Of a stretch of DNA of 33,397 nucleotides, positions 22,928-29,738 are shown piece after piece. This stretch comes from an uncultured Bacilli bacterium (GTDB lineage: Bacteria > Bacillota_I > Bacilli_A > ML615J-28 > CAG-313). Within the stretch, counting starts at the first letter, position 1. Each line of letters begins with the position of its first letter. Below the pieces are notes generated by a model. It saw only the letters and a list, made by a program, of their open reading frames with translations. It was not told the DNA's origin and searched no databases. The stretch spans positions 1-33,397 of the forward strand of contig CANQWZ010000003.1 of assembly GCA_947627685.1 (NCBI GenBank), read 5' to 3'. The position numbers and the translations under genes were made by a program.

Positions 22928-24121
22928 TTATTTATCTGCAAGTTCATTAACATTTATATAATAGTTAGCACTAAAACCAGTTAATTTATTAGCTGTATTT
23001 TCATCAGATGTCTTATAATTTTTACCATTTATAATATCGCCATTCATTGAAACATAAAATCTTTCAATATTTAAACATTCATCTATTTTGTAACTAGTTA
23101 AAATAGAAAGTGTTCTTTGTTTTGAATAAAATCCATATAAAGAATATACTTTAACGTATTCTGAAAAATCGCTATCCTGTGGTGTTATTTTAGCATAAAC
23201 AACTAACTCAATACGTTTTATTTCAGGATAAATATCCCAATCTTCTTCTTTTGTTCTAGCTGCTTTTTCGATAATTGTTAGTAATCTTTGATTTTCTGGC
23301 TTAGCTAAATCTTCTTTTAAATAATCTTCACTATGTTTATATTTGTGTAAATTTTCTCTATTTATTGTACATTCAATTCTAAATTCATCTTCAAAAACTT
23401 CTTTTAGTGAAGTTACCTCAGTTGCTAAATTTTTAGTTATTTTTAAATTAACAGGATCTTCTTTAGGATCAATAAAATTATAAACAGCACTATTAGTTTC
23501 TTTTACTATTTCTCTTTTTTCAGCATTTTTAAATTTCTTAAAATCAAATTCATTAACTTTTACTGAATATTTTATTGAATAAACAGGCTTTTCACCTTTC
23601 TTTTGATAGGTAAGTTCTACATAAAGAATATCTGGTGTTTCATCAAATAAAATATGTTCTGTTTTTTCGTCTTCACTAAATTCTTTGTATTCTTTTGTGG
23701 CAAAAGGTGTACTACTAGTTGTTCCTGCAAATTGATTATAATCATAATCTGAAAAAGTTCTACTACTGTTTGCGGTATCATAATAGCGATAACTTTTTCT
23801 AACCGTTCTTGCTGCAATATAAACTTTAACATTTTCCATTGGTTGGGCTGTAACTAGTTTAACCATTTGAACTTGAATTTCAAATGTTGCTTTTTCATGT
23901 TCACCTATTTGTGTTGTTGTTCCTGTTTGATATTTCGAATCTCTTTCTTCTACTTCTCTTACTAAGACTGCGAAATTATCATCATATGGTAAGTCTTGAT
24001 AATTTTCAAAACGTTTATCGACATTTCTATTAAAAACTAACAATATTATGCCAAATAAAACTAAAGTAAAAACAACAATTATTATTATTTTTAGTTTGGT
24101 TGCTATTTTTTTAGTTTCCAT
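22928..24121 (-). CDS. Hypothetical membrane-anchored protein between rpmH and dnaA
   Basis: Start moved to ATG 24121 (SD GAGGTGGA); basic N-terminus, one TM helix, about 365-aa soluble domain not recognised. Confidence 0.8.
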   Translation of the reverse strand: METKKIATKLKIIIIVVFTLVLFGIILLVFNRNVDKRFENYQDLPYDDNFAVLVREVEERDSKYQTGTTTQIGEHEKATFEIQVQMVKLVTAQPMENVKVYIAARTVRKSYRYYDTANSSRTFSDYDYNQFAGTTSSTPFATKEYKEFSEDEKTEHILFDETPDILYVELTYQKKGEKPVYSIKYSVKVNEFDFKKFKNAEKREIVKETNSAVYNFIDPKEDPVNLKITKNLATEVTSLKEVFEDEFRIECTINRENLHKYKHSEDYLKEDLAKPENQRLLTIIEKAARTKEEDWDIYPEIKRIELVVYAKITPQDSDFSEYVKVYSLYGFYSKQRTLSILTSYKIDECLNIERFYVSMNGDIINGKNYKTSDENTANKLTGFSANYYINVNELADK

Positions 24122-24141
24122 AATCCACCTCATTGTATTTT

Positions 24142-24195: not shown

Positions 24196-24280
24196 TTATC
24201 AACTTATCCAAAATGTGGATAAAATGTTTATTTTTTATCTATTTTTATTGTGGAAAAAATGTGGATAACTATGTGGAAAA
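24196..24280. other. oriC part 1: DnaA-box cluster upstream of dnaA
   Basis: TTATCCAAA 24204-24212, TGTGGATAA 24214-24222 and 24260-24268 (perfect), TGTGGAAAA 24249-24257 and 24272-24280, degenerate TTATCAACT 24196-24204. Confidence 0.88.
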
Positions 24281-25754: not shown

Positions 25755-25810
25755 TTATCCACTTATCCACACTACTAATAATAAATAAAAAAATAAAAAA
25801 TTAATAATAA
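25755..25810 (+). other. oriC part 2: tandem DnaA boxes, DnaA-trios and AT-rich unwinding element
   Basis: TTATCCACT 25755-25763 overlapping TTATCCACA 25763-25771, then CTA CTA ATA ATA (25772-25783) and an A-rich tract, in the dnaA-dnaN spacer as in Bacillus subtilis. Confidence 0.88.
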
Positions 25811-25820
25811 GAGGTGAATT

Positions 25821-26957
25821 ATGAAATTTATAATCGAAAGAGAATTGCTACTTTCAACTTTACAAAACGTATCTAAAGGCCTATCGCAAAAAACACCAAT
25901 GCCTGTTCTTACTGGTATTTACATTTCAGTAAATGAAGATAAAATTACTTTTATTACCACAAATAAGGAGATTGCGGTAAAGATAGAACTTGAAAAAAGT
26001 GAAAAAGTTAGACTTTACGAAACAGGAGAATGTGTTGTTCCAGGCAAGTACTTTTTAGACATTGTAAGAAAAGTAGAAGGCAAAGATGTTGATTTTACTT
26101 TATTTGAAAAAAATTCTATTAAAATTTTATCTGATCGTTCGGACTTCACACTAGTAGCTTATGATAAAACAGATTATCCTAAAACCAATTTTTTAACCGA
26201 TGTAACGCCGATAATATTTGATAGTAAAGAGTTAAAACAAATTGTTAGAGAAACTTCGTTCGCTTGCGCATCAGCAGAAACAAGAATTGCCTTCACAAGA
26301 ATCGTTTTGTCTAGTTTGAATTTTAAAGCCAAAAATGGCCTATTAGAGATAGTTGCAACAGATAGCTTTAGACTTGCTAAGAAAGTTTCAAAAATCGCAA
26401 CAGATGTCGAAATTAACGTTAATATTCCAAGCAAATCATTAGATGAGTTTTGTAAGATTTTAGACGAAGAATCAACCGTTGTTAAAGTATATTTAGAAAA
26501 TAGCAAAGTTATTTTTGAATATAAAAATATTGTTTTTGTTACAAGATTAATAGAAGGAAATTATCCCGATACTTCAAGTTTGTTCCCTAACGAATCACTA
26601 TTTGTTGCTGAATTTGATCGTAACGAATTAATAAACGCTGTTGATAGAGCATCATTATTTAACAATTCAGAGAGTGTAAACATCGTCAAATTTAGTTTTA
26701 CAAGTGCAAACAAAGCTGAAATTTCTTCTAATTCAACTGAAATTGGTAAAGTTGTAGAAGAGATTTATTTAGAAAATAACTTAGAAAACGTTAATTTTCA
26801 AACAGCTTTTAGCACAAAATATCTTTTAGAGGCTCTAAGAGCGTTTGAAAAAGATAAAGTTAGTCTTTATTTTACTGGTGAAATTAAGCCAGCTTTAATA
26901 AAAGAGCAAGAAAATGATACACTTACTCAGTTGTTGCTTCCAGTAAGAGTTTTTTAA
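25821..26957 (+). CDS. dnaN: DNA polymerase III beta clamp
   Basis: MKF.I.R..L, PVLTGI, VPGKYF, VATDSFRLA, RLIEGNYPD, C-terminal QLLLPVR. Confidence 0.97.
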   Translation: MKFIIERELLLSTLQNVSKGLSQKTPMPVLTGIYISVNEDKITFITTNKEIAVKIELEKSEKVRLYETGECVVPGKYFLDIVRKVEGKDVDFTLFEKNSIKILSDRSDFTLVAYDKTDYPKTNFLTDVTPIIFDSKELKQIVRETSFACASAETRIAFTRIVLSSLNFKAKNGLLEIVATDSFRLAKKVSKIATDVEINVNIPSKSLDEFCKILDEESTVVKVYLENSKVIFEYKNIVFVTRLIEGNYPDTSSLFPNESLFVAEFDRNELINAVDRASLFNNSESVNIVKFSFTSANKAEISSNSTEIGKVVEEIYLENNLENVNFQTAFSTKYLLEALRAFEKDKVSLYFTGEIKPALIKEQENDTLTQLLLPVRVF

Positions 26958-26966
26958 TTGAAACAA

Positions 26967-26999
26967 ATAAAAAAAGCACCTTAATGGTGCTTTTTTTAT
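26967..26999. terminator. Bidirectional terminator between dnaN and parA-like gene
   Basis: ATAAAAAAAGCACC-TTAAT-GGTGCTTTTTTTAT perfect 14-bp stem. Confidence 0.85.
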
Positions 27000-27005
27000 G
27001 CTTTT

Positions 27006-27794
27006 TTAGTCTAAATTGATGTCTTTAAAGATAGAAATAAGGTCTTTTTTTATTTCATCGAAGTTCTTTTGATGGAATCTGTCCTTCATTGGCTTATTAT
27101 CGAAGACAGAAGTGCCTTCTGCTTGGATGTTTTTTATTTCGGCTTTATCCTTGACTGGAACCGTCATTTCGGCCTTTGGAAGCATCACTTTTGCTTGTTC
27201 TTTTAGCTCTTTCAAACAGTTCATCGGAGCACGTCTTCCTTTGATGTATCCGACCGGTACAATGTACCTAATTTTGTCCAAATCGATGTCAGTATCGACA
27301 AAATATTGAATTGTGTTCGAAAAACCTTGTAAACCAAGCGTGTCTAAACCGACAACAATTAAAATTGATTGACTGATGTCGAGCAAAATTTCGCTCAATC
27401 TGCTGCTTGAAGGCGGAAAATCGATAAAAATATAGTCGAAAAATTTGGTAAAACTCTCAATTATCTGCCTCAAATGCTTTTCTTCGGACCTTTTGAGCGT
27501 TAAATTCAAAGAAAGCCTATCTGTATTTAAGGTTTTCATTAAATACATATTTATTCTTGCTTCAAATGTGATGTCTTGAGGCTCTTTTTCACCCACAAGC
27601 AAATGTTCGAAGAAATCATCATCACGATCAGTAACAAAATGGTCAACGCCGAAAATTTTAAAAATACTATTTTGATCATCAGCGCTAATAACTAAAACGG
27701 TTTTTCCTTGAGTTGCGTAGTAATGAGCGAGATAGCCAAGGAATGTAGTCTTGCCAACTCCGCCCTTTTTACAGAATGCAGAAATGATTGGCAT
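27006..27794 (-). CDS. parA: ParA/MinD-family ATPase (short, type Ib-like)
   Basis: Deviant Walker A KKGGVGKTT at the N-terminus, A' VISADDQNS, Walker B YIFIDFPP; no N-terminal HTH and no MinD amphipathic tail evident. Confidence 0.88.
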   Translation of the reverse strand: MPIISAFCKKGGVGKTTFLGYLAHYYATQGKTVLVISADDQNSIFKIFGVDHFVTDRDDDFFEHLLVGEKEPQDITFEARINMYLMKTLNTDRLSLNLTLKRSEEKHLRQIIESFTKFFDYIFIDFPPSSSRLSEILLDISQSILIVVGLDTLGLQGFSNTIQYFVDTDIDLDKIRYIVPVGYIKGRRAPMNCLKELKEQAKVMLPKAEMTVPVKDKAEIKNIQAEGTSVFDNKPMKDRFHQKNFDEIKKDLISIFKDINLD

Positions 27795-28153
27795 TATCTA
27801 ACACCTTCTCTCGCTAATTTTTCACGGCAAGCATCCTCTACAAACTTAGCAAACATAATTCCACGTGTTGCACAAGCAATTTTTATTTGTCTTCTTAATG
27901 CAATATCCATTGTTGATGTGTATTTTTCTCTGTTTGCATCATCAGGTTGATAATATTGTTGTCTTTGCTGCTGTCTTACTGGTCTTTGCACCGTTTGTTT
28001 AGGTTGTTGTCTTACTACTGGAGCTACTTCTTCATAAAATTCTTGTTCTTCGACTACTTCGGGCTCAGTTTTTACAATCTCAGGCTCTTTTTCTTCCTCA
28101 GTTACTCTTGGAACGTCAAATGGGTTTCTTCTTTTAATTGGTTGATTATTCAT
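27794..28153 (-). CDS. Putative ribbon-helix-helix DNA-binding partner of ParA (ParG/omega-like)
   Basis: SD AGGAGGT; basic N-terminal peptide, low-complexity E/Q/P linker, C-terminal KYTSTMDIALRRQIKIACATRGIMFAKFVEDACREKL beta-helix-G-helix pattern; TAATG stop/start overlap with parA. Fold is inferred. Confidence 0.75.
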   Translation of the reverse strand: MNNQPIKRRNPFDVPRVTEEEKEPEIVKTEPEVVEEQEFYEEVAPVVRQQPKQTVQRPVRQQQRQQYYQPDDANREKYTSTMDIALRRQIKIACATRGIMFAKFVEDACREKLAREGVR

Positions 28154-28180
28154 AACTAACTACCTCCTATCAACAATTAA

Positions 28181-28209
28181 ATGATAACACAAACCCAAAA
28201 ATTATGCAA
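28181..28209 (-). promoter_or_regulatory. Promoter of RHH-parA operon
   Basis: TTGCAT (28209-28204), 17 bp, TG-T-TATCAT (-10 at 28186-28181). Confidence 0.65.
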
Positions 28210-28220
28210 TTTTTTTGCAA

Positions 28221-29466
28221 TATTTATTTACATAACTAATTAAATATAACCATATTTATTGTAATGAGTCAAAAAACTAAAAAATCTAAAAATAACGATT
28301 TTGTTAAAAAGAATGAGAAAAACATTTCAAAAAACTCTTTAAAAACAAAAAATGAAGTCAAAAAAAGCCTTAAAAATCGATTTTTCAAAAAAAAATGAAA
28401 AATTATTAACCCCCGGGGGGTCAAAGTCAAAAAAACCACGATTTTCAAAAAAGCTGTTTTCACTCGAAAAATTAGGATTTTCATCGTGTTGAACAAGATT
28501 TTTGTTTAATATGTAAATATGTAAATACATAAAAAGAAAGTCAAACAGTCTTAGTGCTTAGCAGTAACAATTTTGAAATCAAAACAAAAAAGTTTTAAAT
28601 ATGAATTCATCAATATTTTATTTTAAAATTAAAAGTAATTATTTTTATTGTAAACTAAAATTAATGTTTTTAGTTTTAATTTAAAAACAATTTTTGAGTA
28701 ATAATATCGATTTTCAAACTAAAAACTTTTTTGTTAAAACCAAAATAGTCGAATTTTTTACGATTGTTATTAAATTAAAACTAAAAACTTTTAAAATTAT
28801 TTAATTTAAAACATTAATTTTATTGGTATTTAAGTTTTAAACTAAAAGTTTTTAGTTTTAAAAGTATCATTTTATACATAAAAGAATAAAAAAATAATTA
28901 CTCTTTTATGTATAAGAATAAAATAATAAATATTTATAATTTAAAAACTTTTAAAATAAAATAAAAAATGACATCTCAAACTATAAAATGTAAATATGTT
29001 TATAAGTAATTATGTATAAAAATAATTATGTAGATAAATATCAAAAATTAAATATTTAAATAAATAAGTTTATATTTATTAACGTATTTAAATCAATAAT
29101 TAAAAAAACATTTAAAGTTTTATTTAAAATAATAAAAGAATAAATATTTTTTTATTATTTTAAATAAAATAATAATACTTATAATATCAAAGTATTAAAA
29201 AAAACGACGTTTTTTACAAAAAAATCTTAATTTTAAATGATTTTAAGAATGCTGTTATTTTTAAAAAATAAAAAATATTTTTATATTATATATAAAATAA
29301 GGAATATACATAAATACATAAAAATTAACAAAAAACAGCTTTAAAAGTTGCAAACGTCGTTTTTTTGATAGGAAAAAATCGAAAAACAAAAAGATTGGTT
29401 TAGGCGAAGTTTTTGGACGGGAAAACGACATTTTTTTGGAAATTTTTTAAGGTTAAAAAATCGAGG
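28221..29466. repeat. AT-rich non-coding region with several families of short direct and inverted repeats (candidate centromere-like region)
   Basis: 8-bp phased ATGT/ACAT arrays (28511-28535, 28988-29040, 29304-29324); inverted repeats 28666-28691/28763-28788, 28775-28792/28844-28861, 28872-28885/28902-28915, 29198-29212/29352-29366; no credible ORF. Confidence 0.6.
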
Positions 29467-29475
29467 TCAAAACCA

Positions 29476-29504
29476 TTGAAAAAAACTTAAAAATGTGATA
29501 TAAT
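29476..29504 (+). promoter_or_regulatory. Promoter of yaaA-recF-gyrB-gyrA
   Basis: TTGAAA (29476-29481), 17 bp, TG-A-TATAAT (-10 at 29499-29504). Confidence 0.75.
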
Positions 29505-29527
29505 TTAGATGTTAAATGAGGTGTTTT

Positions 29528-29738
29528 ATGGAAGTCGTAAAAATTTCAACTGAAAGCATAAAATTAGGTCAATTCTTAAAGCTAATTGGTGCTGTTTCTA
29601 CCGGTGGTGAAACTAGGGATTTTTTAATAAAAAACACAATAAAAATCAATCAAAAAGAAGAAAATCAGCGTGGAAAAAAGATATTTTTGGGGGATTTTTT
29701 AGAAATTAATGGTAAAAAATATCTTATTGAGGCTAAAA

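Follow-up and report, generated by a model that had tools for sequence, protein, structure and literature searches.

The window analysed here, a stretch of 33,397 nucleotides on contig CANQWZ010000003.1 (assembly GCA_947627685.1) of an uncultured Bacilli bacterium, is the origin region of a 1.34-Mb genome that is available as 137 contigs and is 91.6% complete. Between dnaN and yaaA it holds a compact three-part unit of approximately 2.5 kb, composed of a gene for a 119-residue protein (the small protein), a gene for a ParA-type ATPase (ParA2) and an AT-rich spacer carrying short, phased boxes. Judged from its sequence and conservation, the unit is probably a chromosomal, origin-proximal ParA/ribbon-helix-helix/centromere system of a type Ib-like kind, which partitions the origin in place of ParB–parS in the order ML615J-28, the order to which the families CAG-698 and CAG-313 belong (PMC10868615, text available in part). 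We also lean, if narrowly, towards the broader proposition that the whole order swapped the ParB–parS centromere of its primary chromosome for one based on ribbon-helix-helix (RHH) proteins, with a ParG/omega-like adaptor, a kilobase field of TACATA boxes phased at 8 bp and a dedicated ParA. The observation from which the original prediction started was confirmed, and its interpretation as a domesticated plasmid-type segregation cassette was partly supported. The layout described there, a dnaN–yaaA junction split by two translationally coupled minus-strand genes and about 1.3 kb of non-coding DNA, was recovered in full: reading of the sequence shows that the small gene's stop codon overlaps the parA2 start ATG by one base (TAATG), and the gap measures 1362 nt. 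The coordinates of all features are collected in Table 1.

Conservation of the pair was assessed in a sample of 41 genomes of the order, all of them metagenome-assembled genomes (MAGs), drawn from two families (f1 and f2) and 26 genera. ParA2 and the small gene were each detected in 40 of these, and in a sample spanning the class ParA2 was present in 48/48 genomes of the order versus 3/350 outside it. Synteny was inspected at 20 loci, selected for contig room and genus spread from the 39 relatives with the pair. The order dnaA-dnaN-[parA<-small]-gap-yaaA/recF-gyrB was observed in 20/20 loci, recF being undetected in two and yaaA in one; the cassette is thus not confined to a single strain. No integrase, transposase or Rep gene was found flanking it, as had been noted for the window originally. 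Across the same loci the identity of ParA2 was 48–90%, compared with 44–78% for DnaA, 31–74% for DnaN, 31–66% for RecF and 63–93% for GyrB, i.e. ParA2 is better conserved than DnaA, DnaN and RecF and comes near to GyrB. Within the genus, dN/dS ratios of 0.05–0.11 for parA2 and 0.11–0.26 for the small gene indicate that both genes are under purifying selection.

Outside the order, related ATPases were encountered in three Bacilli genomes, each encoding a ParA 43–45% identical to ParA2 in a chromosomal two-gene module (L120:6175–7332, L121:6028–7151 and L122:6380–7466). The coupled upstream gene of these modules encodes 97–123 residues, the product starts MQKR(K/I)(S/N)PLE, and the K-R motif of the small-protein tail recurs in it. 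The modules lie away from dnaA and dnaN, two of the three genomes have ParB, and inspection by eye of 100–250 nt upstream of the modules gave no obvious TACATA array. These three two-gene modules mean that the pair exists as a unit elsewhere. Searches of plasmids with tblastn returned at best 25–29% identity over the full length; in phages the highest identity was 32%, with 61% of the query covered. A plasmid or phage origin was considered and set aside, with no close homologue (≤32% identity) and no donor identified. The part of the original interpretation that had the cassette domesticated from a plasmid is unproven: ParA2 is nearest to Soj rather than to ParF or delta, plasmid and phage matches stay at or below 32%, and its closer kin, at 43–45%, are chromosomal.

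An alignment of 21 orthologues divides the small protein into three parts: an N-terminal tail, a variable linker and a conserved C-terminus of 45 residues. In the tail, K7, R8 and P11 are invariant in the 21 sequences and N10 is found in at least 90% of them. A profile of the orthologues matched the RHH regulator SvtR (2kel) in the PDB at E 2.3e-8, and the AF2 model places two helices (residues 84–97 and 101–116, pLDDT 85–95) after an extended segment, with the N-terminal part disordered. The top rows of both Foldseek and VIA fold searches were RHH proteins. In VIA the top rows were RHH proteins throughout (Z 5.9–5.0), including PutA (5.9), CopA_SO (5.8), omega (5.6) and SvtR (5.5), with lower scores for ParG (4.3), the ParB of pCXC100 (3.8) and SegB (3.7). 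Likewise, sub-threshold Pfam matches among the 21 orthologues were to RHH families, namely 56B_RHH (8 orthologues), RHH_10 (7), RHH_3 (4), Omega_Repress (4) and ParG (1, a weak match at 0.016); the Omega_Repress scores all fell under the Pfam cut-off, the best being 27.5 bits versus 33.3. In combination, the profile, the AF2 model, the fold searches and Pfam establish the C-terminus as an RHH domain, as the original prediction had expected for the 119-residue protein. The fold has the strand-helix-helix arrangement over approximately 45 residues that characterizes the class, and the protein has the character of the small RHH binding proteins of type Ib systems. Single-sequence scans failed to name the small protein, and the profile of orthologues was therefore needed for the assignment: direct Pfam and NCBIfam scans of the window's own protein gave no naming match (nothing beyond DUF3950, 0.19, and YlcI/YnfO, 0.061), phmmer against the PDB reached 2kel at 0.46, and Foldseek returned no match at E ≤ 0.001. 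Where the approximately 430 clusters to which the small protein belongs are named, the label is only 'hypothetical protein', and in a protein atlas its clusters are likewise all 'hypothetical protein', plus one with RHH_3 in 25% of its members.

ParA2 matches Pfam AAA_31 at 2.1e-23 (83.6 bits versus a cut-off of 27), and residues 8–16 of its 262 residues form the sequence CKKGGVGKT, a deviant Walker A motif as found throughout the ParA/MinD superfamily. The catalytic motifs are invariant in 21 orthologues (K10, G11–K15, D39/D40 and D125). The N-terminal helix-turn-helix (HTH) domain of type Ia ParAs is missing, and ParA2 is thus a short ParA of the kind seen in type Ib systems. Among proteins of solved structure it comes closest to Soj (1.2e-10 for that of H. 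pylori), followed by McdA and MinD.

The third component is the gap itself, which is the most AT-rich 1.4-kb window in the 1.34-Mb assembly. A gap was found in 21/21 loci, with a length of 1185–3088 nt and a GC content of 11–29%. It showed no conserved open reading frame (ORF): stop-free stretches of at least 70 residues are absent from 7/21 gaps, and elsewhere they shift in frame and position. A known RNA was also sought and rejected, an Rfam scan of positions 26900–29600 giving sub-threshold matches only (the best at 28.9 bits versus a gathering score of 52). Alignment of the gap from nine genomes revealed conserved islands amid freely drifting AT-rich DNA, and a k-mer census of the gaps led to the recognition of an 8-bp phasing of short boxes. 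Pairs of ACAT/ATGT boxes at a distance of 8 bp were observed 124 times in the 21 gaps, where Markov controls predict 4.8 (z 57). Further multiples were likewise populated, with 71 pairs at 16 bp, 46 at 24, 37 at 32 and 29 at 40, other distances being at background. The phasing is visible in each family separately (24 pairs versus 0–2 at neighbouring distances in f1, 100 versus 1–2 in f2), and among tetramers with at least 100 copies ACAT ranks first for it, the next three overlapping ACAT. The consensus of the repeating unit is TACATA+WW. The gap had been described originally as rich in repeats, which is correct in substance, albeit the meaningful repeat is this 8-bp-phased box and not the many chance AT-rich repeats.

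Three clusters of boxes are present in the window (Table 1). Cluster 1 is the sole three-box site in the 1.34-Mb genome, and a cluster at comparable distance (314–399 nt) occurs in 8/14 f1 loci; the block that contains cluster 3 is strongly conserved, in 9/9 aligned genomes. In the sister family f2, the loci L047, L048 and L050 carry 16–21 clusters of 2–8 boxes, spaced mostly 40–200 bp apart. In 11 of all 21 loci an array extends to just upstream of the small gene, in the operon promoter region. In the source genome the gap, which makes up 0.1% of the sequence, holds 4 of 26 two-box sites in addition to the only three-box one. When a 20-mer three-box pattern was searched genome-wide in relatives with at most 2 mismatches, the matches fell inside the gap in 8/8 cases in G037, 12/12 in G030, 1/1 in G029 and 5/6 in G025, with 1 match in all for a reversed control. 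The boxes are thus essentially unique to the origin-side locus, genome-wide. Iterated short boxes of this kind are what a type Ib centromere consists of, and a candidate for the repeat centromere that had been anticipated next to the operon is found here in the locus-specific array of boxes upstream of the small gene. In the parH centromere of TP228, tetramer boxes with AT-rich spacers are bound by the RHH protein ParG (PMC3130281, in part), and omega recognizes short repeats that adjoin one another and are oriented either directly or inversely (2bnw, PMC9499535 and PMC4498918, each in part). By analogy with these systems, short boxes in mixed orientation and in a fixed 7–9-bp register are the way in which RHH partition proteins read DNA.

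Several observations on the gap stand beside these results. The 12-mer ATAAGGAATATA is present in exactly one copy in each of 13/21 gaps and is more conserved than the boxes. A C5-G6 palindrome at 28411–28423, situated in DNA of 17% GC between the conserved sequences TGAAAAATTATT and TAAAATCAAAAAAA, recurs in 10/21 gaps at 205–274 nt upstream of the small gene, its centre varying symmetrically, and the region 28424–28406 (minus strand) scans as terminator-like. A promoter-like TTGACT-17-CATATT (28516–28544, minus strand) overlaps box cluster 1, and on that strand the palindrome follows approximately 100 nt downstream of it; conceivably, a short RNA is transcribed from this site to about position 28406. 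The motif AAACG(A/T)C(G/A)TTTTTT is found in three copies before the yaaA promoter (29202–29217, 29352–29367 and 29423–29438), the middle one inside a block conserved in 9/9 aligned genomes, and these copies are possibly recognized by a different regulator. Two further boxes in the yaaA promoter probably occur by chance. Contigs C14 of G001, C23 of G002 and C8 of G004 (loci L003, L011 and L008) start 540–700 nt upstream of the small gene. As contigs assembled from short reads are prone to end within the AT-rich gap, the length of the box field is possibly underestimated in MAGs.

The presence of this unit coincides with a lack of ParB and parS. A profile search for ParB_N gave no match in the source genome at its 91.6% completeness, and a scan with the 16-bp parS consensus found no site with ≤1 mismatch in the genome (4 with 2 mismatches) and only 3-mismatch matches, at chance level, in the window. 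Neither attribute of a chromosomal ParABS system, a ParB_N protein or a parS near the origin, was accordingly detected; the absence from the window had been pointed out before, and the whole-genome check extends it to the source genome. At E ≤ 1e-15, ParB_N was detected in 256/400 genomes of the class, but in 1/48 of the order versus 255/351 elsewhere, and other families had it in 10/10, 8/8, 38/38, 12/12, 49/49, 23/23 and 22/22 genomes. If any ParB_N match is counted, 19/106 genomes of the order have one. Only two of these matches are strong, and both are in loci of <3 kb, apparently short contigs; the others have E values of 1e-14 or higher, many of them being in long ORFs of 180–450 residues. 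On these searches, the order is without the usual ParB, and the source genome without parS.

Conversely, the Soj half of the canonical system has been kept. The original prediction had noted that gidA and gidB are absent from the window; they are not absent from the genome, in which contig C18 carries gidA(mnmG)-rsmG-soj and, directly behind soj, a DUF951 gene in place of spo0J. The Soj of C18 is canonical (260 residues, AAA_31 2.5e-61), and its gene overlaps the DUF951 gene by 4 nt (rsmG to DUF951 span L002:780–2468). The same rsmG-soj-DUF951 run, without room for spo0J, was observed in 11/11 loci of relatives. Since Soj is retained after gidA-rsmG, the lineage is ParB-less rather than ParA-less, and it has two ParAs.

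A mechanism consistent with these components can be outlined. Dimers of the 119-residue RHH protein would bind the TACATA boxes, 8 bp apart and in clusters of 2–4, and the clusters, distributed over a 1.2–3-kb AT-rich spacer, would build up a large nucleoprotein complex beside oriC. The long disordered linkers would hold the K-R-x-N-P-F tails out to ATP-bound, nucleoid-bound ParA2 dimers, whose ATPase would thereby be stimulated, and the origin-side complexes could then be pulled apart or positioned by a ParA gradient in a diffusion-ratchet manner. In the 11/21 loci in which clusters reach the operon promoter, the small protein would probably also regulate its own synthesis. Binding of the boxes by the small protein, activation of the ATPase by its tail and the segregation output are what we infer from the parts. 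That the tail in addition serves the orphan Soj kept after the loss of Spo0J has a small chance of being true.

Of the known systems, ParF-ParG-parH of TP228 shares several traits with the unit described here. In each, a small Walker-type ParA that lacks an N-terminal DNA-binding domain is paired with a small RHH protein, dimeric in the case of ParG and presumably so here, whose N-terminal tail is flexible, here by prediction. The centromere, a candidate in the present case, is situated upstream of the operon in both and consists of short boxes that AT-rich DNA separates, here with a unit of TACATA+2 and a period of 8 bp. The tail of ParG boosts ATP hydrolysis by ParF by means of a motif resembling an arginine finger, according to the title of the paper cited for it. 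In contrast to TP228, the present unit is situated on the primary chromosome beside oriC, its candidate centromere region extends over 1.2–3 kb versus approximately 100 bp, a disordered linker of 60 residues is present, and ParA2 lies outside the ParF clade. The gene order is likewise reversed, as the original prediction had it: type Ib systems are plasmid-borne with the ATPase gene first, whereas here the small RHH gene precedes parA2, in a chromosomal slot in 20/20 loci. The delta-omega-parS system of pSM19035 resembles the unit in its RHH binder, its short repeats in both orientations and the phylum of its host (Firmicutes), and in the structural comparison of the small protein omega ranks among the best (VIA, above). 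Its repeats are, however, heptads with a 7-bp period as opposed to 8 bp here. The genes for delta and omega of pSM19035 form separate transcription units.

Judged by its parts, the nearest analogue is archaeal SegAB. SegAB of Sulfolobus and HpaAB of Haloferax (pHV3) are chromosome-encoded pairs of a ParA-type ATPase and a small, partly disordered RHH protein that binds specific sites beside its operon, without a ParB-type CTPase (PMC8682754, PMC12139799 and PMC13722703, each in part). The unit studied here likewise pairs a ParA-type ATPase with an RHH protein and has its candidate sites adjoining the operon; it differs in belonging to another domain of life and in being tied to a bacterial dnaA-dnaN origin. 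For the adaptor, SegB gave no sequence match, and its VIA comparison with the small protein (Z 3.7, rmsd 5.5 over 50 residues) was tied with unrelated rows. The archaeal SegAB and HpaAB operons have the ATPase gene first. With Soj-Spo0J(ParB)-parS the unit has in common its position near the origin, an ATPase of Soj size that is closest to Soj in sequence, and a presumed task in origin partition. Unlike that system, it has an RHH adaptor instead of an HTH/CTPase ParB, and it lacks both ParB_N and a 16-bp parS.

A number of results weigh against a dedicated partition system. One genome of the order, G021, lacks both genes at 94% completeness. Canonical Soj is kept in 38/41 genomes of the order, and as this ParB-less motor is also present, the cassette need not be the sole or main segregation device. 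One family of the class, f21, has neither ParB_N (0/21) nor ParA2 (0/21), from which it follows that loss of ParB does not require the ParA2 module. The families f9, f25 and f26 of the class are poor in ParB as well. ParA2 falls outside the ParF, delta and plasmid ParA clades: neither ParF nor delta is among its 18 solved relatives at E ≤ 1e-3, its score against NCBIfam ParA_partition is 51.4 bits versus a cut-off of 180, and no curated NCBIfam equivalog was passed. The genus of the window is poor in boxes, with 3 clusters and 9 phased boxes in the window, and the single match of the 20-mer pattern in the source genome (G000) lies outside the gap, on contig C76, with 2 mismatches. The pattern misses the G000 gap because the clusters of the window have other box orientations. 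Autoregulation is not evident in the window either, given that no cluster overlaps the operon promoter. The small protein obtained moderate scores in the fold searches (Foldseek E > 1, VIA Z < 6), as is to be expected of a domain of 45 residues, and the RHH assignment rests mainly on the profile match. Finally, a complex prediction of the ParA2 dimer with ATP and tail residues 1–40 scored 0.60 (runs 0.60, 0.59 and 0.61; best of 3 controls 0.01), with at least 60% of contacts agreeing between runs and a partner pLDDT of at least 49. In the calibration, the pass mark was reached by 58/80 solved complexes and 2/110 mismatched pairs, but scores of ≤0.60 comprised 7/80 solved complexes and both mismatched passes, i.e. 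passes this low are often wrong, and the predicted contact of tail and ParA2 lends weak support.

The alternative to be taken most seriously is that the pair regulates the origin region and is not a motor, the RHH protein acting as a repressor or architectural protein for its own operon and yaaA-recF-gyrBA or for oriC-side DNA, and ParA2 as its cofactor or as a Soj-like regulator of DnaA and initiation. We regard this as unlikely, though with a real minority chance. The cassette sits between dnaN and yaaA and begins 1.2 kb from the dnaA-dnaN spacer, as follows from the positions of the DnaA box clusters (24204–24280 and 25755–25771; 25 matches in the window versus 11.5 expected) and in line with the distance to the unwinding site given originally. 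Cluster 3 and other conserved blocks precede the yaaA promoter by 90–330 nt, in 11/21 loci the operon promoter region is overlapped by arrays, and RHH proteins are mostly repressors, as the match lists of the fold searches also reflect. Soj provides a precedent for control of replication initiation (PMC7614844, in part). A repressor would nevertheless be served by one operator, yet 16–21 clusters over 2–3 kb are found in L047, L048 and L050; moreover, the basic conserved N-terminal tail, the long disordered linker and the translational coupling to ParA are hallmarks of a partition adaptor, and the retained Soj could already serve the control of DnaA. The two roles are not mutually exclusive. 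Type Ib centromere-binding proteins also act as repressors.

It is improbable that the gap is instead part of an extended replication origin, involved in unwinding or initiator loading, with the boxes bound by another factor and the operon merely adjacent. The extreme AT content would suit such a role, as would the conserved length and composition of the gap, and the minima of the cumulative GC skew (at ~24–25.5 kb, −5.35, and at ~28.5 kb, −5.40) do not separate the two places. The DnaA boxes, however, form clusters upstream of dnaA and between dnaA and dnaN, and the gap was rejected as a DnaA-box origin with a single 1-mismatch box inside it. The 8-bp register and mixed orientation follow the pattern of RHH arrays (PMC3130281 and 2bnw, in part), and in 11/21 loci the arrays reach the promoter of the RHH gene itself. 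That ParA2 positions some other cargo, such as a protein assembly or, like MinD or MipZ, the division site, with the RHH protein as a DNA-anchored adaptor or a mere regulator, appears more improbable still. Many cargos are positioned by ParA-family ATPases, the solved relatives include McdA and MinD, and the related modules of three Bacilli are not at the origin, two of these genomes having ParB. Against this, the adaptor fold is that of a sequence-specific DNA binder, and the sole genome-wide concentration of candidate sites adjoins oriC. What is left of a plasmid or phage that once integrated, decaying or selfish and without host function, would fit a plasmid-like gene pair transcribed against its neighbours, but this reading is hardly credible. 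Occurrence in 40/41 genomes and in the same slot at 20/20 loci, dN/dS of 0.05–0.26 and conservation of ParA2 above DnaA and DnaN leave it all but refuted by the sequence comparison, and the flanks lack mobile-element genes and plasmids and phages a close homologue.

The partition unit has well-defined expression borders, as the original prediction had described: a terminator common to dnaN and the ParA gene on the left, and a separate yaaA promoter on the right (Table 1). Among the 4 RNA runs of one study, none was listed as containing the locus. Downstream of yaaA follow recF, gyrB and gyrA. To the left of dnaA, the leftward genes are yidC, an R3H (jag-like) gene, mnmE and a gene for a class II aminoacyl-tRNA synthetase, the last in agreement with the synthetase gene that had been noticed next to mnmE. 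An ORF of 401 residues between rnpA and dnaA (22928–24133, minus strand) has a hydrophobic N-terminus and no Pfam match, and is weakly conserved (23–44%) in family f1 only.

Table 1. Features of the dnaN–yaaA interval and its borders (positions in the window)
Feature	Position	Strand	Description or basis
dnaA	24317–25720	+	ORF layout
dnaN	25821–26957	+	ORF layout
Bidirectional intrinsic terminator, common to dnaN (+) and the ParA gene (−)	26967–26999		14-pair stem, T-runs on both strands
ParA2 gene, 262-residue ATPase	27006–27794	−	Deviant Walker A, without N-terminal DNA-binding domain
Small-protein gene, 119 residues	27794–28153	−	Upstream of parA2
RHH domain, residues 75–119	27797–27931	−	Strand KYT[S/A]TM (here KYTSTM) and two helices
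Acidic/Q/P-rich variable linker, residues 13–74, predicted disordered	27932–28117	−	Alignment; AF2 model without secondary structure there
N-terminal tail with K7 R8 x N10 P11 F/L motif, putative ParA-activating peptide	28118–28153	−	Alignment
Ribosome-binding site GGAGG of the small-parA operon	28163–28167	−	Conserved columns, 9-genome alignment
Putative promoter of the small-parA operon	extended −10 28181–28189, −35 28204–28209	−	Conserved columns; absent from consensus promoter scan
AT-rich spacer with box clusters, candidate centromere region	28154–29515		1362 nt, 17.3% GC
Box cluster 1	28510–28531		Three boxes, TATGTA-aa-TATGTA-aa-TACATA, 8-bp phase
Box cluster 2	28988–29031		Four ATGT boxes phased at 8 bp, two of them neighbours and two following skipped units
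Box cluster 3	29307–29320		TACATA-aa-TACATA, inside conserved block 29293–29330, preceded by AATAAGGAATA (29293–29306)
yaaA promoter, right border of the element	29476–29504	+	TTGAAA-17-TATAAT with TG, 11/12 match; conserved in alignment
yaaA	29516–29752	+	S4_2 3e-21, YaaA_near_RecF 1.3e-20

According to reviews, all bacterial chromosomal centromere-binding proteins belong to the HTH class (PMC5002424, in part), and lineages without ParB have been treated as being without an active partition system (PMC7022226). A literature search, which covered few subscription journals, found no RHH/ParA system on a bacterial primary chromosome and no account of partition in ML615J-28 or RF39. If the proposed function is correct, the unit would be the first case of a bacterial main chromosome served by RHH-based partition, and the counterpart of archaeal SegAB among bacteria. 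It offers an annotation name for the approximately 430 clusters now called 'hypothetical protein', and a candidate answer to how the origin is handled in these uncultured gut bacteria, reduced-genome Bacilli with Soj but without Spo0J. It would also mean that ParB, with its CTP-dependent clamp, is replaceable, and that a ParA together with an RHH adaptor can rebuild active chromosome partition in bacteria as in archaea.

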